Below are positions 1 to 7,541 of a stretch of 7,541 nucleotides of DNA, one piece after another; the first letter of the stretch is position 1, and every line of letters begins with the position of its first letter. Made by a program: the position numbers and the translations under genes. This stretch comes from a virus. Taxonomy: Duplodnaviria; Heunggongvirae; Uroviricota; Caudoviricetes. The stretch is taken from positions 1 through 7,541 of IMG/VR virus record IMGVR_UViG_2645727593_000017; one strand, written 5' to 3'. The notes under the pieces were generated by a model. It searched no databases. It was not told the origin of the DNA and saw only the letters and a list, made by a program, of their open reading frames with translations.

Positions 1-1119
1 TCAAATAACCAACTTAACCCATTCCTGACCTCGAGTATCGTTATAGCGATCGGTGGTTGCCTGGACTTTATGTCCTAGTAATGTTTTTGTATCGATACCC
101 TGTGCACGGTACAGCCGTTCTGATAGAGAGCGTTGTTCATGAAATGTTGGCGGAGTTTTTCCTGCTGGTGGAATTATCCCAGCCAGATCCCGTGCTTTGG
201 CAAAGTAGCCGCTCAGGTTGTCTTTACTCATCGGCTTCGGTTGTTTCTGGTGCCGACTATGGATTAGATATGGACTTAATATTCTGTCTCGGCACCCATC
301 AATAACTTCTTTTAACGTTATCCCAATGGCATCACAGCGTAGTGTAAGCGGTAATGCCAGACGCATTCCGGTTTTTCCCTGGGTGATATGCAAGTGTTCG
401 TTCCACACATCTGAAAAACGCATGTGGCAAATGTCATCACGGCGCTGACCAGTAACAATCGCAAGAAGCATTGCGTTACGGATAAAGTGTTTTTCAGGCG
501 TTGTATTGTAAATTTTTTGCCAGTCTTCCATGGTGAGCCTGGCTCTGGTTACTTTAGGGATCGGTTTACGGGTAGCCTCCGGAGGATTCCATCCAGGAGG
601 AACTTCCCCTGCATGCTGTGCTTCTTTATAAATATCAACCCATAATCCACGATTTACTCTCGCTGTGCTGACCATGTCTTTATCCAGCCACTCATCCAGT
701 ATTAATGCAAAGTCTCTTACTTCCAGTTCTTTCAATGGGTGGTTTCCCAGACGGGAAACCAGGTATGCAGCCATTCGAGTTTTTTCTTTGTGAGTTGTAG
801 CTGCAATATCTCCATTTTTCAGTCGCGCGTCCTGTATTTTCAGATATCGATCAACCCATGCCTTTAATCTGATGCCCCGACGTTTTGTTGCTGACGGACT
901 TTCATCAATTTTGCGCATGAAATATTCAGCTTCTGCTGCAGCTATTCGCTGATTGGCTGTGGAAGCGATTTTTTCTGCTTTGCCTTTGTCTGTTCCGAGA
1001 CCGTGAAATTTTCCAGTCACAGGGTTTTTATACTGGTAGTAAACCCTGCCAGTTCTGCGATCAAACTTTTCGTAAAGACCGGTTACGTCAGTGCTGTTTT
1101 TTCGTGGCCTCGGTGACAT
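1..1119 (-). CDS. int: Phage tyrosine integrase (lambda Int family), complete, 372 aa
   Basis: Complete ORF with ATG at 1119-1117 and TGA at 3-1. AAGGAG Shine-Dalgarno lies 10 nt upstream of the start. The N-terminal arm-binding region resembles lambda Int (YYQYKNPVTGKFHGLGTDK). The C-terminus carries tyrosine-recombinase catalytic motifs (HEQRSLSERLY ... LLGHK ... TTDRYNDTRG, with the catalytic Tyr). The start overlaps the 3' end of xis as in lambda. Confidence 0.93.
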   Translation of the reverse strand: MSPRPRKNSTDVTGLYEKFDRRTGRVYYQYKNPVTGKFHGLGTDKGKAEKIASTANQRIAAAEAEYFMRKIDESPSATKRRGIRLKAWVDRYLKIQDARLKNGDIAATTHKEKTRMAAYLVSRLGNHPLKELEVRDFALILDEWLDKDMVSTARVNRGLWVDIYKEAQHAGEVPPGWNPPEATRKPIPKVTRARLTMEDWQKIYNTTPEKHFIRNAMLLAIVTGQRRDDICHMRFSDVWNEHLHITQGKTGMRLALPLTLRCDAIGITLKEVIDGCRDRILSPYLIHSRHQKQPKPMSKDNLSGYFAKARDLAGIIPPAGKTPPTFHEQRSLSERLYRAQGIDTKTLLGHKVQATTDRYNDTRGQEWVKLVI

Positions 1120-1339: not shown

Positions 1340-2951
1340 CAAGTGCATTATGGCGCTCACCTTCGAATGGGATAGCCGTTCTGGCATCGAAGTCTATGGC
1401 TTTCCCCAGCTCAACGATTGTGCGTACATCGCGATCGTTGTAGTAACGCCACGGGCAGGGGATCCCCTGCCGTTCGTATGAACGGCGCAAAATCGTGTTG
1501 TCGAAGTTGGCTCCATTTCCCCAGACCTGAACAAAAAATTCACCGGAGTTTTCGTCGATAAATTCCCGCAATTGCAGTAGTGCATCATCTAACGGGATTT
1601 CATCGGTCATAATGGCAGACTGCGCTTCACGTGATTGCTTCAGCCACCATTTAATGGTGTCACGATCAATGACTCCGCCAGCAGTTTCCAGATCGATAGT
1701 CTTACTAAATTCCGGTCCCATATCTCCGGTTTGCGGATCGAAAAATATTGCACCTATTGAGATAATCGGGGCATCAGGATTTTTTCCCATGGTTTCAAGG
1801 TCGATCATTAGATGGTCACACGTCCTGCTGGTGGATGTGATAACGCGATGACCGTTCACCGTAATTAAGGGATCTGCCGTCTCGCCAGTTTCACTATCGC
1901 TGGCGTGATCCTGAGCGCTGCCAGCATTCTCCTTGTGTGGATGTTCAGCGCCTTCCATTTTCTCCGAATCGTCTTCCTGAACTTCAACCTGGTTCTTGTC
2001 ATCGAATGTTTCCTGGTATGTTGCGTCGCCCATCACCGCACCACAATCAGGGCAGTTGCCACCGCCGGTCTGACCGCAGGCGGTGCAGACTTTTTCCACT
2101 TCCTGTTGCGCCACTGGTTCAGGCTGTTTCGTTTCTGGCTCGTTTTGTAACGCATTTGGGCTGTTTTGTTCCGCTTTCTGGTCGTTCTGTTCCGTTTCTT
2201 GCTGGTTCTGGTTCACAGAATCGCGGGTTTCAATCCCCTTCACCCATTTCGGATCATTCGGGTCGCTAATCCCTGCAACAAATTCACCACGTGATGCGGC
2301 GAGCAACTGATTGGCGTCAGGCTGGCTGATATTGGCTGCCTGCATAATTTTGTTTACTTCGTCAGCGGTAACTTTTACCGGTTCTGGCTGTGCGGTCGTG
2401 TCAGATGCACCAGTATTTTGTTGTGAACCTGAGTATGTACTGTTTTTGCGGGCGAAATATTCTTCTTTCGTGATTTCAGTAGCCCCGGCAGCCAGCGCCT
2501 TATCCAGACCAGAAAGTTTGTTTGCGCGACCGTATTTTTCGCCATCCTTGTCGGTGAAGAGGAAGTAGAACGGCCCCTCACGCTCTACAGATGGTTCGAC
2601 TTCCACTTTGCATTCGGTTTTTTCGTTGTCCGGAATTGCCGTTTCCACTGCATCAGTTTCTGGTACTGGCGACGAGAGAGTATCAGTTGCGCTCTGATTT
2701 GTTCCTTCATCTTCAAACACGCCCTTTGTAGTCAGGTATTCAGTAATGTATTTGTTCAGTGCCACAGGATCTTTGTGAATGTCGATCGGACGTTCACGGA
2801 CAAGGCCAAAAATAGTCTGGCGGTCGTAGCGAAGGGCATCAGGCTGTTTGCGCATCGATGCCGAGATACGCTTCCAGTCTTCGCGGTCGTTGTCGATAAC
2901 TTCATTTTTTGCCCAGCGATGGATGCTGCCGTCAATGTTTCCGGCATCCAC
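1182..2951 (-). CDS. Large acidic protein with C4 zinc ribbon and C-terminal DEDDh (DnaQ-like) 3'-5' exonuclease domain; probably the downstream part of an ~850-codon frame interrupted by TGA at 2961-2963
   Basis: 589-codon ORF. Exo I motif MIDLETMG at nt 1788-1808, Exo II WGNGANFDNTIL around nt 1500-1517, Exo III HNALDDA (H-x-A-x-x-D-A) at nt 1332-1352. CTACGQTGGGNCPDC (C-x2-C-x7-C-x2-C) zinc ribbon at nt 2043-2087. Q/E-rich acidic linker upstream of the ribbon. The ORF begins with GTG directly after an in-frame TGA, with no Shine-Dalgarno and no ATG until codon 33. Confidence 0.7.
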   Translation of the reverse strand: MDAGNIDGSIHRWAKNEVIDNDREDWKRISASMRKQPDALRYDRQTIFGLVRERPIDIHKDPVALNKYITEYLTTKGVFEDEGTNQSATDTLSSPVPETDAVETAIPDNEKTECKVEVEPSVEREGPFYFLFTDKDGEKYGRANKLSGLDKALAAGATEITKEEYFARKNSTYSGSQQNTGASDTTAQPEPVKVTADEVNKIMQAANISQPDANQLLAASRGEFVAGISDPNDPKWVKGIETRDSVNQNQQETEQNDQKAEQNSPNALQNEPETKQPEPVAQQEVEKVCTACGQTGGGNCPDCGAVMGDATYQETFDDKNQVEVQEDDSEKMEGAEHPHKENAGSAQDHASDSETGETADPLITVNGHRVITSTSRTCDHLMIDLETMGKNPDAPIISIGAIFFDPQTGDMGPEFSKTIDLETAGGVIDRDTIKWWLKQSREAQSAIMTDEIPLDDALLQLREFIDENSGEFFVQVWGNGANFDNTILRRSYERQGIPCPWRYYNDRDVRTIVELGKAIDFDARTAIPFEGERHNALDDARRVETKTVQSPNNKHYPGEIRKTRIHRSKTTKNSWALADRSPGSICWTW

Positions 2952-4082: not shown

Positions 4083-4655
4083 AATTATCTCCATTTTTAC
4101 AAATGAACTTTGTTGATGCGGTGCCTGGTGCCTCCAGGTGACGTTAACCAGTTAACAATTAACGCCGGATACAGAGAGCCCACCCATAACACTGTTTTTG
4201 GTTTTAACTGTTCCGCGTGCGCTCAGCCGCATTCACCGCATCACAAAACTCACTTTAAAAAGGGCGGCAGACCAGTCACGGAGTAAAACTGATACCGCCA
4301 AACGTCACCAGAAAATTGATAACAGAGGGCGTTGCAGCGGGGTTGTCACTTAAGCGTATGGTCAACCTGACAACCCGGTGTCCTCAACGGGGGAAGGAAT
4401 AACCCCGCCATACTTACCGCCGCGCCATTTCGCGGATTGCCACAACCGGAAGCGCACGGTCGACGAAAATTTAACGACAGGCTATCTATGAACCAGCTAC
4501 CTCGCCGTGCGCTTTCGCGTTATGGTCTGACTTTTCAGGGAAATATCCTTTCAGTAAACTGTCAGTGCCGGATGCTCACCCGTGTCCGGCGCAAGCACTC
4601 CACCTCACCCGTGGAGAACTCCTTAATTACCAACCTTAGCTTCGTTGGTTAGCTA

Positions 4656-5507: not shown

Positions 5508-5984
5508 TTAAGTTCCTGTCTTGGTGATGTTCTGGCTTTTCCGTTTTGATGCTTGATTTTTCAGATAGTTAGCTACCTTCATTTCCATTGCGGCAATGTA
5601 GGCGCGAACGTCATGATCAACCCAACTAGGCTCCGTAGCATTTCCAGATAAGATGAAAGCCACAATTGCTCTTTTTTCATCAGAGGCGGCTTGATAAAGG
5701 CTGTTTATGTCTAAAAGTTCACTTTTTGTATCTGAAGTGGATGGGGTTGGTATGGGGTATTCGTTAAGCCCCCAATGCTCTGGACCAACCACATCAGAAA
5801 AGAAACGCCATAGTTCTGGAAGTTTGTCTTTACTTATCGAACCTTTCTTAATCCAGTCATGGATTGATGGTGGTTGGACTTTGAAATGACGTGCGATTTC
5901 CGCCTTTGATTTGACGGCTCCTGATGCAATTTTTTTGTTAATGGCCTGCTCTATCGCTCGGCCTAAATCTTTACCACTAAGCAT
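5508..5984 (-). CDS. racR: Prophage immunity repressor, HTH_XRE type, 158 aa, no LexA-like peptidase domain (RacR-like)
   Basis: ATG at 5984 with AGGAGA upstream. HTH segment KSKAEIARHFKVQPPSIHDWIKKG. Divergent from a cro-like gene and flanked by operator/promoter inverted repeats. Length and neighbourhood (KilR-like to the left, YdaS/YdaT-like to the right) match Rac. The symbol is assigned by architecture, not by sequence recall. Confidence 0.65.
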   Translation of the reverse strand: MLSGKDLGRAIEQAINKKIASGAVKSKAEIARHFKVQPPSIHDWIKKGSISKDKLPELWRFFSDVVGPEHWGLNEYPIPTPSTSDTKSELLDINSLYQAASDEKRAIVAFILSGNATEPSWVDHDVRAYIAAMEMKVANYLKNQASKRKSQNITKTGT

Positions 5985-6036: not shown

Positions 6037-6079
6037 ATTAGGCATAGCCTATTGACAATTTCATTAGGCTAAGCCTAAT
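6037..6079. promoter_or_regulatory. OR-like operators: ATTAGGC-ATA-GCCTATT (6038-6054) and perfect palindrome ATTAGGC-TAA-GCCTAAT (6063-6079)
   Basis: Two 17-bp palindromes with 7-bp arms and 3-bp centre, 25 bp apart centre to centre, overlapping PR. The left one is part of the 23-bp inverted repeat shared with OL. Confidence 0.55.
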
Positions 6080-6081
6080 AT
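6052..6081 (+). promoter_or_regulatory. PR-like early rightward promoter: -35 TTGACA (6052-6057), -10 TAATAT (6076-6081, 18-bp spacer) or CTAATA (17-bp spacer)
   Basis: Consensus -35 located 52 bp upstream of the cro-like ATG. The -10 region is embedded in the perfect operator palindrome. Confidence 0.5.
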
Positions 6082-6108
6082 TGTTGCGTGTTTTTTGGAG
6101 TTCATTCG

Positions 6109-6432
6109 ATGAAAAAAGATAACTATTCATTCAAACGAGCTTGTGCTGTTGTCGGTGGGCAATCAGCAATGGCTAGGCTTTTAGGTGTATCTCCTCCAAG
6201 CGTAAATCAATGGATCAAAGGTGTACGTCAGTTACCTGCTGAGAGATGTCCTGCGATTGAACGAGCAACAAAAGGTGGTGTCCTGTGTGAAGAACTTCGT
6301 CCTGATGTTGATTGGACATACTTACGACGCTCGTCATGTTATTCGCAGAATATGTCGATGAAGCAACCAAATGACGAAAACGATCATACCCGAAGCATCA
6401 AGAGGCAAATGATTCATGAAAATCAAACATGA
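6109..6432 (+). CDS. ydaS: Cro/YdaS-like HTH regulator, 107 aa
   Basis: ATG at 6109 with GGAG 8 nt upstream; the track ORF begins at an upstream GTG at 6088. HTH segment QSAMARLLGVSPPSVNQWIKGVRQLP. Divergent from the repressor across the operator region. Its 3' end overlaps the next gene by 17 nt. Confidence 0.7.
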   Translation: MKKDNYSFKRACAVVGGQSAMARLLGVSPPSVNQWIKGVRQLPAERCPAIERATKGGVLCEELRPDVDWTYLRRSSCYSQNMSMKQPNDENDHTRSIKRQMIHENQT

Positions 6433-6841
6433 GCACATCCGCATGGCGATGAATGCCTGGGCATACCCTGATGGTGAGAAAGTTCCTGCAGCTGAAATAG
6501 CCCGGACTTATTTCGAACTGGGGATGACGTTCCCTGAACTGTACGACGACAGCCATCCGGAAGCCCTGGCCCGTAATACCCAGAAAATTTTCCGTTGGCT
6601 GGATAAAGACACCCCTGATGCTGTTGAAAAAATGCAGGCTCTGTTACCGGCGATCGAAAAGGCGATGCCGCCTTTGCTGGTGGCCCGTATGCGCAGCCAC
6701 AGTTCTGAATATTACCGTGAGATCGTCGAACGGAGGGATCGGCTGGTGAAGGATGTCGATGATTTTGTTGCGTCAGCGGTTGTTTTGTATGACCAGATGA
6801 ATCGCGGCGGCCCGGCAGGGAATGCTGTGGTGATGCACTAA
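6416..6841 (+). CDS. ydaT: YdaT-like protein (CII-like or toxic regulator family), 141 aa
   Basis: ATG at 6416 with AGAGG upstream, overlapping the ydaS-like stop. Length and position match the Rac racR-ydaS-ydaT arrangement. The antisense ORF 6423-6881 is P/S/R-rich and judged spurious. Confidence 0.65.
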   Translation: MKIKHEHIRMAMNAWAYPDGEKVPAAEIARTYFELGMTFPELYDDSHPEALARNTQKIFRWLDKDTPDAVEKMQALLPAIEKAMPPLLVARMRSHSSEYYREIVERRDRLVKDVDDFVASAVVLYDQMNRGGPAGNAVVMH

Positions 6842-6863
6842 AAGCACGGTGTTCGGGGGTTTT

Positions 6864-7541
6864 ATGAGCAGCAAGCTTCATGGTCTTGTCTGGGAAGGGT
6901 GCGCCTTCACCGGCATGATCTTATCCAGGGTGGCGGTTATGGCCCGTCTTGCAGACTACAGCAATGACGAGGGCGTGTCATGGCCTGCCATTGAAACTAT
7001 CCGGCGTCAGATCGGTGCAAGAAGTGAATCCACAGTGAAATCGGCTATTGCAGAACTGGCGAAAGAGGGCTGGCTGACGAAGGAAGAGCGTAAGGTCGGT
7101 GGGCGTAATGTAAGCAATATCTATCGGCTTAATGTGGAAAAACTCGAAGCAGCTGCGGCGGCGGCGCGTGAGTCATATAAACCGAAAAGAAAAATTAGCC
7201 CGGCAAAAAATGACCCGTTAACAGTTGACCCGTCAAATATTGACCCCTCAACGGTTGACCCGTCAAATTTTGATGGATCAACTGTTGATAAAAAACTGCC
7301 GATTAGGGGGGCGATGATTGACCCCGATCCGTCAGTATTAAAACCTGATCCGTCAGATAAAAGATCTTCTTGTCCGGACGCTTCGCAACCGGACCCGCAG
7401 ACGGCTGAACAGGATTTTTTAACCCGACACCCTGACGCGGTTGTGTTCAGTGCGAAAAAACGCCAGTGGGGAAGTCAGGAAGATTTGGTGTGCGCACAGT
7501 GGATCTGGGGACGAATCGTGAGTCTTTACGAGCAGGCGGCC
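6864..7541 (+). CDS. Replication initiator, lambda O-like, with N-terminal winged-helix and internal iterons; 3'-partial (runs off the window)
   Basis: ATG at 6864 with GGGGG upstream; open to the window end (226 codons). The N-terminus (ARLADYSNDEGVSWPAIETIRRQIGARSESTVKSAIAELAKEGWL) looks like a helix-turn-helix replication protein. Tandem DNA iterons inside the coding sequence encode DPLTVDPSNIDPSTVDPSNFDGSTVD. Confidence 0.7.
   Translation, partial: MSSKLHGLVWEGCAFTGMILSRVAVMARLADYSNDEGVSWPAIETIRRQIGARSESTVKSAIAELAKEGWLTKEERKVGGRNVSNIYRLNVEKLEAAAAAARESYKPKRKISPAKNDPLTVDPSNIDPSTVDPSNFDGSTVDKKLPIRGAMIDPDPSVLKPDPSDKRSSCPDASQPDPQTAEQDFLTRHPDAVVFSAKKRQWGSQEDLVCAQWIWGRIVSLYEQAA
7209..7300. repeat. 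Iteron array (candidate phage replication origin) with adjacent A-rich tract
   Basis: Four or five copies of a 15-16-bp unit with an internal palindrome TTGAC-CC-GTCAA: tgacccgttaacag, ttgacccgtcaaatat, ttgacccctcaacgg, ttgacccgtcaaattt, tgatggatcaactg. These are followed by ttgataaaaaactg. Confidence 0.55.

Follow-up and report, generated by a model that had tools for sequence, protein, structure and literature searches.

The segment at positions 7170–7400 of the DNA analysed here (the window, 7,541 nucleotides) is very probably the vegetative origin of replication of a lambdoid E. coli prophage with RacR/YdaS/YdaT immunity, judging from its sequence anatomy and its conservation. It is located in the linker-coding part of the gene of its own initiator. 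Elements of this kind are ordinary; the signature of a constraint that acts on DNA over protein is unusually clear in this one.

Initiator gene and protein

The initiator gene belongs to phrog_391 ("replication initiation O-like", E=2e-115), and residues 182–300 of its product are 39% identical to residues 171–277 of lambda O (BLASTP, E=5e-26), which agrees with the O-like initiator gene named in the first-pass annotation of this DNA. The kinship with the lambda O N-domain which that name implied does not hold: the window protein has an HTH_36 domain (PF13730, 27.9 bits for a cut-off of 25) and no match to Phage_rep_O (PF04492), a family which lambda O matches at 5.7e-36. Because its N-domain is of the PF13730 type, without PF04492, the initiator is, judged by its domains, a hybrid and a functional analogue of lambda O, not a full-length orthologue.

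The N-domains of related initiators match HTH_36 at 4e-11 and also match GntR, MarR, DnaD_N and RP-C. DNA binding by the N-domain is deduced from the fold class only, because the Pfam family differs from that of lambda O. The single-sequence AlphaFold model of this domain had a pLDDT of 41.8 and was unusable.

The coordinates of all features are given in Table 1. No promoter or terminator was found in a scan of positions 6700–7541, and the sole Rfam match in the whole window is DicF, which is unrelated to the origin. In most E. coli copies of the locus, a gene for a DnaC-like loader (phrog_50, E=5e-82) directly follows the initiator gene.

Table 1. Features of the candidate origin and of its surroundings (window coordinates)
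Feature	Position	Strand	Basis or remark
pR-like promoter, TTGACA-18-TAATAT, before the ydaS-like cro gene	6052..6081	+	consensus scan, 10/12 matches
YdaS/Cro gene	6088-6429		Pfam match
YdaT gene	6416-6838		Pfam match
Initiator gene, codons 1-226 of 320 (truncated where the window stops)	6864..7541	+	translation; full-length in identical E. coli copies
N-domain, winged-helix core for DNA binding (HTH_36, aa 25-71)	6936..7076	+	PF13730
A-tract-rich leader left of the array, AAACCGAAAAGAAAAATTAGCCCGGCAAAAAA	7172..7209	+	sequence
Iteron 1, degenerate, ATGACCCGTTAA	7210..7221	+	consensus match
Iteron 2, perfect palindrome, TTGACCCGTCAA	7225..7236	+	consensus match
Iteron 3, TTGACCCCTCAA	7240..7251	+	consensus match
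Iteron 4, perfect palindrome, TTGACCCGTCAA	7255..7266	+	consensus match
Iteron 5, TTGATGGATCAA, contains a non-conserved GATC	7270..7281	-	reads best inverted, TTGATCCATCAA
Terminal half-site TTGA (TTGATAAAAAAC), then A6 tract	7285..7296	+	sixth unit, half only
Isolated iteron left half, ATTGACCCC, abuts the first GATC box	7317..7325	+	exact copy of 7239-7247
GATC box 1, GATCCGTCAG	7326..7335	+	direct repeat; Asp codon GAT in 82/82 relatives
GATC box 2, GATCCGTCAG	7347..7356	+	direct repeat, 21 bp past box 1
Candidate unwinding element	7332..7371	.	least stable 40-mer of the gene; assignment inferred
Inverted repeat GTCCGG-N11-CCGGAC, encodes CPDASQPD	7372..7394	.	kept in relatives
Lambda-O-like C-terminal domain, start (aa 182 onward)	7407..7541	+	BLASTP

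Iteron array and flanking segments

Five 12-bp sites match TTGACCCGTCAA with at most two mismatches, all of them within 7210–7281. The number expected by chance in the window is 0.73, and none of 200 dinucleotide shuffles reaches the observed count. There is no further site of this kind elsewhere in the 7541-base window, the vicinity of the promoter included. Four or five iterons of 15–16 bp had been reported earlier at 7209–7285; the repeats are real and there are five of them, with a period that is strictly 15 bp. Tandem Repeats Finder detects an additional super-period of 30 bp (84% matches). Iteron 5 has two mismatches when it is read inverted, compared to four in the direct orientation. 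From the sequence, the binding unit could be parsed either as TGA-N4-TCA or as TCA-N5-TGA.

The array corresponds to codons 116–145 of the initiator gene and, as the first-pass annotation had recognized, encodes a repetitive linker, (T/N)(V/I/F)DPS. The A-run after the terminal half-site is kept in relatives. The A-rich stretch described earlier at 7286–7300 exists, in a short and weak form, as an A6 run at 7290–7295 (the GC content over 7260–7299 is 0.35), and does not come near the lambda tract of about 40 bp with about 79% A+T.

The segment 7332–7371, which is separated from the last iteron by about 40 bp, contains 65% A+T (z=2.1 in a nearest-neighbour stability profile), but the least stable stretches of the window are found elsewhere. 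Box 2 lies within it, as does the third GATC (7363–7366), which is not conserved. The place of unwinding is uncertain because this segment is weakly A+T-rich and because two others, 7169–7198 and 7265–7305, are almost as unstable. The first of these is a 30-mer that overlaps the A-tract leader (stability z=2.3), and the leader is a candidate for DNA bending or for an alternative unwinding site. Further downstream, the CCGGAC inverted repeat, which is present with every combination of N-domain and C-domain among the relatives, marks a hinge or a mosaic junction.

Mosaic relatives

The initiators of SfII and SfIV (Shigella), PhiR49_1 and LLS (Escherichia), Klebsiella phage 1 LV-2017 and Citrobacter phiNP are homologues of the window initiator, with 45–63% identity. 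These six, called the SfIV group here, have in common with it the HTH_36 N-domain, an array of TGA-N4-TCA units with a 15-bp period in the same slot, the A-run, two GATCC(G/A)TCA boxes and the CCGGAC hinge. The unit consensus is TCTGAC(C/G)C(G/A)TCAAAA (SDxSK) in the SfIV group, compared to xTTGACCCGTCAAxx ((V/I)DPS(N/T)) in the window, and the recognition helix and wing also differ (GAG-STVRTAI against GA(K/R)SxxTV(K/S)xAI). Most of the SfIV-group initiators are "solo" and are followed by a Dam-family methyltransferase, with no DnaC-like loader in that position. The SfIV genome paper describes no origin. The six homologues named above carry the annotation "replication protein O / primosomal protein I".

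In LLS, phiNP and Kp4866, the N-domain is again HTH_36 and both the 15-bp array and the GATC boxes are present, but the C-domain is a different one (Phg_2220_C). Initiators of the mEp460 type (mEp460_ev081, mEp460_4F5) have the lambda-O-like C-domain, the hinge and repeats in the same gene slot, but a different N-domain. Their repeats are five or six palindromes of 23 bp, CATCGGGTCAAAATGACCCGATG, which are read in all three frames (the start frames of the six-repeat array are 0, 2, 1, 0, 2, 2), and they lack the GATCCGTCA boxes. The type of repeat thus tracks the N-domain: HTH_36 always occurs with the 15-bp TGA-N4-TCA array, whatever the C-domain.

Constraint on DNA rather than on the peptide

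The array was compared at 82 loci across Enterobacterales. An in-frame 15-bp array is found in the same slot in all 83 related genes examined, in 3–10 copies. Since the period is divisible by three, the array is always in frame, its copy number varies like that of slippage-prone repeats, and its product, low in complexity and rich in P, S and D, connects two conserved domains, it could be proposed that the repeats are a mere peptide linker, kept or homogenised at the protein level or by unequal crossing-over, and that the DNA is functionless and not bound by the initiator. The conservation pattern makes this proposal extremely improbable. The best-kept positions of the unit are T3, G4, A5, T10, C11 and A12, two of which are third positions of codons. 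These two, T3 and A12, are kept better than the first or second codon positions of the same units, with conservation values of 0.97 and 0.97 in window-type arrays and 0.88 and 0.90 in SfIV-type arrays. The peptide itself varies, with 26 different versions among the products of 30 distinct window-type units. The choice of codons is skewed: within window-type arrays, 92% of serines are encoded by TCA and 82% of aspartates by GAC, compared to 20% and 30%, respectively, outside.

Exact reverse-complement units, TTGACCCCTCAA (IDPS) and TTGAGGGGTCAA (VEGS), coexist in the family; they are seen in Erwinia, Morganella and Edwardsiella loci, and Morganella has the inverted form alone. Neither tandem duplication nor selection on the peptide can produce such pairs. 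Moreover, the motif survives across lineages that are nearly saturated at synonymous sites (with a third-position identity of 0.48), and the out-of-frame 23-bp repeats of the mEp460 type fill the same slot. Positions 4 and 7 of the palindrome were also checked for compensatory covariation (unit lists read by eye), which was uninformative because every TGAY-GC-RTCA variant is either a palindrome or the reverse complement of another.

By these comparisons, the array is conserved as DNA and not as peptide. The linker (T/N)(V/I/F)DPS is probably a by-product dictated by the DNA sites, tolerant and disordered. The first-pass annotation had named a repeat that merely reflects a repetitive protein linker as the objection to its own proposal; this objection is rejected, as what is kept is the palindrome and not the codons, reverse-complement units exist, and the 23-bp repeats are read in all frames.

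GATC boxes and the possible role of Dam and SeqA

GATC occurs around the array at positions 7276 (inside iteron 5), 7326, 7347 and 7363. The three sites within 41 bp that had been noted before are the last three of these, and the site at 7276 is an additional fourth one. Of the two copies of the direct repeat, the second was correctly placed at 7347–7356, but the first, given as 7325–7334, was off by one. For SIGNIFICANCE within the window, which contains 33 GATC in total, the clustering of GATC does not reach significance (P=0.28 for three in 41 bp, P=0.17 for four in 91 bp), and its significance therefore rests solely on the comparison with relatives.

Of these three or four GATC sites, only two, those of boxes 1 and 2, are conserved in relatives. 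The 9-mer of box 1 is GATCCGTCA in 67 of 82 relatives. At the aspartate position of box 2, the codon is GAT in 75 of the 82, GAA in seven and GAC in none. As a control, the codons of the invariant aspartates D31 and D35 at the same loci are split 41:35 and 37:39, that is about 50:50. Codon usage thus indicates that the GATC of the two GATCCGTCA boxes is kept beyond coding need. Across the 82 relatives, the density of GATC is 18.5 per kb in the 150 nt that follow the arrays, compared to 2.9 per kb in the remainder of the genes and 0.59 per kb inside the arrays. Indeed, GATC is excluded from the main iterons, where the Asp-Pro pairs are encoded by GAC-CCN in 79 of 79 cases.

SeqA binds paired GATC sites that are at most about 31 bp apart and on one helical face, a rule attributed to Brendler and Austin (1999). 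The two boxes are 21 bp apart in the window, in phase; the distance is 24 bp in 73 loci, 18 bp in seven and 12 bp in one, so the helical phase between the boxes varies across the family. A phage gene for a Dam-family methyltransferase is present within about 800 nt downstream at no fewer than 44 of the 83 loci.

The control of the candidate origin by Dam and SeqA, as suggested in the first-pass annotation, is plausible but unproven, its backing being the conservation of GATC at synonymous sites. A more specific and tentative reading, which we regard as possible but doubtful, is that the two GATCCGTCA boxes are a methylation-sensing module whose methylation state would gate the binding of the initiator or of SeqA. 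It is put forward because GATC is kept at a synonymous site, is excluded from the iterons and lies in the likeliest unwinding segment, with a Dam gene nearby. If this reading were true, the host Dam or the phage Dam would determine whether the boxes are fully methylated, hemimethylated or unmethylated, and the phage origin would be licensed or sequestered after each round; alternatively, an incoming phage genome would be told from a resident one. Changing GAT to GAC at the two boxes leaves the protein unchanged, which offers a simple experimental handle on the control of phage replication by Dam.

Proposed initiation and alternative roles of the sites

A pathway can be proposed by analogy with lambda. 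Rightward transcription from the pR-like promoter (6052–6081) would cross ydaS, ydaT and the initiator gene, hence the origin, so that the same transcript would make the initiator and traverse its target. The HTH_36 N-domain would bind the five TTGAC-CC-GTCAA quasi-palindromes, whose invariant skeleton is TGA-N4-TCA, probably as dimers. Packing at 15 bp would then give a compact nucleoprotein complex like the "O-some" of lambda, in which alternate sites would be on the same face because 30 bp make about 2.9 helical turns. This complex would destabilise the modestly A+T-rich segment 7332–7371, with its GATCCGTCAG boxes. Finally, the lambda-O-like C-domain and a DnaT-like tail would recruit a loader, either the downstream DnaC-like protein or the host DnaC, and DnaB would be loaded.

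Conservation at the DNA level is the kind of constraint that a binding site is under and is no proof of initiation. The sites could bind the initiator or a regulator and have a main role other than firing (autoregulation or a roadblock to rightward transcription, control of copy number through handcuffing, or the exclusion of homologous phages through titration of the initiator), with the origin elsewhere. Plasmid iterons generally serve both initiation and negative control, which would fit such a role. So would the observation that cloned iterons of the lambda ori confer a replication-inhibition phenotype against rep-lambda phages (PMC3349717). We nevertheless consider such a main role, with an origin elsewhere, very unlikely. 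An origin fits the position of the array, which is that of the lambda iterons, as well as the homologous C-domain, the adjoining segment of low stability and the covariation with the N-domain; no like site is present near the promoter or elsewhere in the 7.5-kb window, and no second repeat cluster was seen in the replication region of the relatives. The proposed roles are, in addition, compatible with origin function.

Carriage in E. coli

Of 5426 complete E. coli genomes, about 1366 carry the initiator gene at ≥99% identity, among them O157:H7, O104:H4, O103 and O121 strains; this is consistent with the vertical spread of a resident prophage. The alleles differ in their state. In the O157:H7 allele, iteron 3 is mutated to TTGCCCCCTCAA and the A-tract is broken, and loss of a GATC is also seen among the alleles. 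The TUM10008 allele is 30 bp longer, the copy number of the array being polymorphic within E. coli. The closest full-length match to the window has no DnaC-like gene. Rac-like prophages are often cryptic (PMC11014345).

Many of the carriers are probably defective prophages, and the window's own copy may be inactive, because the O157:H7 allele is damaged and the nearest full-length match lacks the DnaC-like gene. The same observations on spread, damaged alleles and crypticity could mean that the segment is the remnant of an ancestral origin, now non-functional in the E. coli prophage and surviving through its youth or by hitch-hiking. We find this very unlikely: the window allele is intact in its iterons and in both GATC boxes, with a reading frame that is open to the window end, another allele carries two additional intact iterons, and the constraint seen across 82 loci shows that, in the lineage as a whole, the DNA sites have been under purifying selection.

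The vegetative origin proposed here provides a precise and testable candidate for a very common family of E. coli prophages, and the assignment extends to serotype-converting phages of Shigella, to Klebsiella prophages and to many other Enterobacterales. The array is also a clean natural example of overlapping codes, in which DNA sites dictate a linker and the inversion of a site turns Asp-Pro-Ser into Glu-Gly-Ser. The pairs of N-domain and iterons, which are naturally swapped against C-domains, make a ready set for the study of initiator specificity and of incompatibility in phage replication. The textbook view of lambdoid replication is unchanged.

Comparison with known origins

No report of replication, initiator binding or unwinding for this element or its close relatives was found in the searchable literature. 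Full texts searched with the sequences of the iterons and of the GATC boxes yielded nothing but unrelated primers; the review of phage replication modules by Weigel and Seitz was outside the scope of this search.

The first-pass annotation stated that the arrangement mirrors ori-lambda, and the comparison bears this out. The iterons of lambda are at codons 117–144 of gene O, compared to 116–145 here, and in both cases the origin lies in the initiator reading frame, between a DNA-binding N-domain and a homologous C-domain that recruits the loader. Transcription of the pR type crosses the origin rightward in lambda, as proposed here. Lambda and the Stx phages 933W and P27 (both of these Stx phages with six iterons) also have inverted-repeat iterons in 4–6 copies, the number of which varies among relatives, and the lambda and Stx-phage origins, with iterons inside the initiator gene, have the same working principle (PMC7466680).

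There are differences as well. The lambda iterons are 18–19 bp long and spaced by 20–24 bp, whereas the window has 12-bp sites in both orientations with a strict 15-bp period. In lambda, a tract of about 40 bp with about 79% A+T is adjacent to the iterons, compared to a segment with 65% A+T about 40 bp away. The lambda origin has no GATC box, whereas two are conserved here; the post-iteron linker of lambda aligns weakly with those of SfIV and the window, and has GAATCC where the others have GATCC. The partner protein is lambda P in lambda and a DnaC-like protein here.

In P22 and phage L, the iterons are likewise located inside a lambda-O-like initiator gene, gene 18, but the sequence and length of the repeats differ and the initiator is paired with a DnaB-type helicase (gp12). 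The phage L origin has six 11-bp repeats, and its assignment, made purely on sequence grounds, followed the reasoning that is applied here (PMC8022706).

The Rac prophage of E. coli K-12, whose oriJ is reported to be active (PMC3945230), has the same layout of racR-type repressor, ydaS, ydaT, initiator (YdaU) and DnaC-like ATPase (YdaV). YdaU and the window initiator have their last 19 residues (..IPPGFRG) in common; the YdaU N-domain is DUF1376, the remainder is unrelated, and no 15-bp TGA-N4-TCA array was seen in ydaU (sequence read by eye). Identity with the Rac oriJ/YdaU replicon was rejected, as only this 19-residue tail aligns. The "Eru" modules of non-lambdoid Stx phages (PMC8044961) are set apart by the proteins described for them: an SF2 helicase with Toprim, Phage_rep_O with DnaB, or a DnaB helicase.

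As for the GATC boxes, a likeness exists with oriC, P1 oriR and oriII of V. cholerae, where RctB 11/12-mers each contain a GATC: here too, GATC is found in short repeated boxes of an iteron-type origin. To our knowledge, a Dam-coupled design is so far limited to oriC, P1 oriR and Vibrio oriII, with none among lambda-type phage origins. oriC carries 11 GATC. In oriII, the binding of the initiator requires full methylation and SeqA limits re-initiation (PMC2865523). The candidate origin differs from these methylation-controlled origins in that two GATC are conserved, compared to at least nine in oriII, the main iterons exclude GATC, and the spacing of the boxes is variable (24, 18, 21 or 12 bp).

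Prophage context

The window covers the left arm of a lambdoid E. coli prophage together with its immunity/replication region. The DicF antisense RNA is full-length (Rfam RF00039; 74 bits, gathering score 48) and is accompanied in the left arm by dicB and ydfC-like genes, as is typical of Qin- and Rac-like prophages. The large exonuclease gene contains a 21-bp tandem repeat (4.1 copies, 70% matches).

Features of the window in map order
Feature	Position	Strand	Remark
Integrase	1-1119	-	first gene in order
Excisionase, then large exonuclease			after integrase
21-bp tandem repeat	2124-2210		within minus-strand large exonuclease gene
DicB gene and DicF RNA			between exonuclease and RacR-like repressor
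DicF RNA	4262-4313	-	
RacR-like repressor	5508-5984	-	
pR-like promoter	6052-6081		ahead of YdaS/Cro-like and YdaT genes
YdaS/Cro-like gene, YdaT gene			after pR-like promoter, before initiator ORF
Initiator ORF	from 6864 past window end	+	cut by window end
Phased A-tracts, AAACCGAAAAGAAAAATTAGCCCGGCAAAAAA	7172-7209		adjoin array on left
Iterons, TTGACCCGTCAA	7210, 7225, 7240, 7255, 7270		start positions
Sixth unit	7285		TTGA alone kept
A6 tract	7290-7295		follows sixth unit
GATC sites near array	7276, 7326, 7347, 7363		
GATC boxes 1 and 2, GATCCGTCAG	7326-7335, 7347-7356		
Least stable 40-mer of gene	7332-7371		
Inverted repeat	7372-7394		GTCCGG-N11-CCGGAC, encodes CPDASQPD

Comparison with loci L001 and L095 shows that the prophage is a mosaic. 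In the window and strain CAU16175 the initiator gene is preceded by a RacR-type immunity region, and in FDAARGOS_536 and O157:H7 the same gene follows a RelE/ParE-RelB-type cassette. The insertion sites of the compared prophages also differ (potC versus ynfA). In layout, this cassette is reminiscent of the paaR2-paaA2-parE2 system (Jurenas et al. 2021, cited in PMC11014345).

The initiator gene and its iterons

The full ORF has 320 codons in identical copies from complete E. coli genomes, and its product matches PHROG 391, "replication initiation O-like" (2e-115). Domain matches indicate a hybrid protein. Residues 25-71 match the winged helix of Pfam HTH_36 (relatives also match GntR, MarR, DnaD_N and RP-C), while residues 182-300 share 39% identity with residues 171-277 of lambda O (E=5e-26). 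Pfam gave no match to Phage_rep_O, the N-domain family of lambda, in the window protein or its relatives, so the protein cannot be counted as an orthologue of lambda O over its whole length.

The final 20 or so residues (..EPDTEIPPGFRG; positions 9901-9960 of L001, beyond the window) are similar to the E. coli DnaT C-terminus (E about 0.01; PDB 2ru8, 6aep and 9zbt), hence the "primosomal protein I" annotations. This tail may be a portable module that docks on the DnaC/DnaB machinery. It is also the only part in common with YdaU of Rac (68% identity over 19 residues); since the two proteins have no other relationship, the element is not the oriJ replicon of Rac. A DnaC/IstB-like ATPase gene directly follows the initiator in most identical E. 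coli copies; the nearest full-length relative of the window has no DnaC-like gene, and the window copy may be inactive.

Five sites match the iteron with at most two mismatches, and none occurs elsewhere in the 7541 bases (chance expectation 0.73; observed count reached in 0 of 200 shuffles). The first-pass annotation had described tandem iterons of 15-16 bp at 7209-7285: the repeat is real and localised, with a period of exactly 15 bp and a super-period of 30 bp. The A-rich stretch described after them is present as an A6 run, which is short and much weaker than the tract of lambda. Unit 5, TTGATGGATCAA (Phe-Asp-Gly-Ser), has two mismatches when read inverted versus four when read directly.

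The segment 7150-7400 was compared with E. coli alleles (L092 1251-1531, L093 8051-8301, L094 351-601). A 30-bp duplication adds two iterons in TUM10008; in O157:H7, iteron 3 is changed to TTGCCCCCTCAA and the A6 tract is broken (AACAAA); GATC box 1 is missing from strain 118 (AATCC).

DNA site or peptide repeat

The array could merely reflect a repetitive protein linker. This was examined in ten phage homologues and 80 genomic loci across Enterobacterales encoding the same N-domain, which gave 83 usable genes. Every one of the 83 carries a 15-bp array, in frame and in the same position, with 3-10 copies. The units are xTTGACCC(C/G)TCAAxx in window-like genes (Erwinia, Mixta, Morganella, Edwardsiella) and TCTGAC(C/G)C(G/A)TCAAAA in genes like that of Shigella phage SfIV, and the recognition helix and wing differ between the two sub-types.

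The best-kept positions are T3, G4, A5, T10, C11 and A12. Two of them are codon third positions, with conservation of 0.97/0.97 and 0.88/0.90 in the two sub-types. Among window-type units, 30 distinct sequences specify 26 different pentapeptides. Within arrays serine is encoded by TCA in 92% of cases, versus 20% elsewhere in the same genes, and aspartate by GAC in 82% versus 30%. Units that are exact reverse complements of each other, TTGACCCCTCAA for Ile-Asp-Pro-Ser and TTGAGGGGTCAA for Val-Glu-Gly-Ser, also occur in window-type arrays, and the array of Morganella has the inverted form only. Such units are produced neither by tandem duplication nor by peptide selection.

In mEp460-type phages, the lambda-O-like C-domain and the hinge are the same but the N-domain is different. 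Their slot holds five or six 23-bp palindromic repeats (CATCGGGTCAAAATGACCCGATG; compared loci L006 1699-1837 and L008 1759-1897), whose copies start in frames 0, 2, 1, 0, 2 and 2 and encode a non-repetitive peptide. These repeats, probably a second, undescribed iteron type, have the GTCA/TGAC half-site in common with the window iterons, at a different spacing. Conversely, in LLS, phiNP and Kp4866 the HTH_36 N-domain, 15-bp array and GATC boxes are retained but joined to a Phg_2220_C C-domain. The repeat type therefore follows the DNA-binding domain, whatever the rest of the protein, a pattern that classically marks lambdoid initiator/origin pairs. The origin of phage L was assigned by the same reasoning (PMC8022706). 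Third-position conservation, codon skew, reverse-complement units and domain swaps together show that the constraint acts on DNA across relatives, and the linker explanation can be rejected.

GATC boxes and flanking segments

Both copies of the direct repeat noted at first pass are present, the first lying one base further on than reported. The window has 33 GATC sites, and taken alone the cluster falls short of significance (P=0.28 for three in 41 bp, P=0.17 for four in 91 bp); it stands out only across the family. The sites at 7276 and 7363 are not conserved in relatives. The aspartate codon of box 1 is GAT at 82 of 82 loci, and that of box 2 is GAT at 75, GAA at 7 and GAC at none. As a control, two invariant N-domain aspartates are split 41:35 and 37:39 at the same loci, where third-position identity at identical residues is 0.48. 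Within arrays Asp-Pro is always GAC-CCN (79/79). Because of these codon choices, GATC density is 0.59/kb inside arrays and reaches 18.5/kb over the 150 nt that follow, against 2.9/kb elsewhere in the genes.

Since the 9-mer GATCC(G/A)TCA is conserved whole and resembles an iteron half, the T may be part of a protein-binding site. Methylation-dependent control through the boxes is plausible but less likely than not. Its closest precedent is Vibrio oriII, where every RctB 11/12-mer contains GATC and initiator binding requires full methylation (PMC2865523). At no fewer than 44 of 83 loci (L004, L005, L008-L011 and 38 loci of the genomic set L012-L091), the initiator is followed about 0-800 nt downstream by a gene for a Dam-family N6-adenine methyltransferase (PF05869 or PF02086). 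This is a count for this initiator type only, and such genes are common there in lambdoid phages generally. The window-type prophage of E. coli and a single Serratia MAG locus are the only ones with a DnaC-like loader in that position. A simple SeqA reading is weakened by the small number of conserved sites (two), by a spacing that changes among lineages (24, 18, 21 or 12 bp) and by conservation of the 9-mer as a whole.

The least stable 40-mer of the gene (65% A+T, z=2.1) contains box 2, and box 1 overlaps its first bases. The phased A-tracts, absent in SfIV-type relatives, form the least stable 30-mer of the gene (z=2.3) and could serve to bend the DNA or as an alternative site of unwinding. 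The inverted repeat is kept at the DNA level with either N-domain and either C-domain; as modules are exchanged at this site, it could represent a hinge, a junction for recombination or one more element of the origin.

Proposed mechanism and comparison with ori-lambda

Sequence comparison demonstrates the anatomy of the element, its DNA constraint, covariation of repeat and N-domain, C-domain homology, gene position and a low-stability segment. The element is very probably the replication origin of the phage, of the lambda kind. By analogy with lambda (PMC7466680), N-domain dimers would occupy the 12-bp sites, and 15-bp packing with the 30-bp super-period would give a compact nucleoprotein complex. 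The adjacent GATC-box segment would then open, the C-domain and tail would recruit a DnaC-type loader and DnaB, and transcription from the pR-like promoter would assist initiation.

An origin embedded in its initiator gene is a textbook kind of element, and homologues of the window initiator are routinely annotated "replication protein O"; the searched literature yielded no description of this particular origin. The array occupies codons 116-145 and the four annotated iterons of lambda codons 117-144 of O, which, with the homologous C-domains, agrees with the initial proposal that the arrangement mirrors ori-lambda. The two differ in DNA-binding domain family, site length, spacing and loader type; in the window, orientation is mixed, the A+T tract is weak and a conserved GATC pair is present. 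As far as sequence can test it, and apart from the Phage_rep_O domain, the element appears to work as ori-lambda does.
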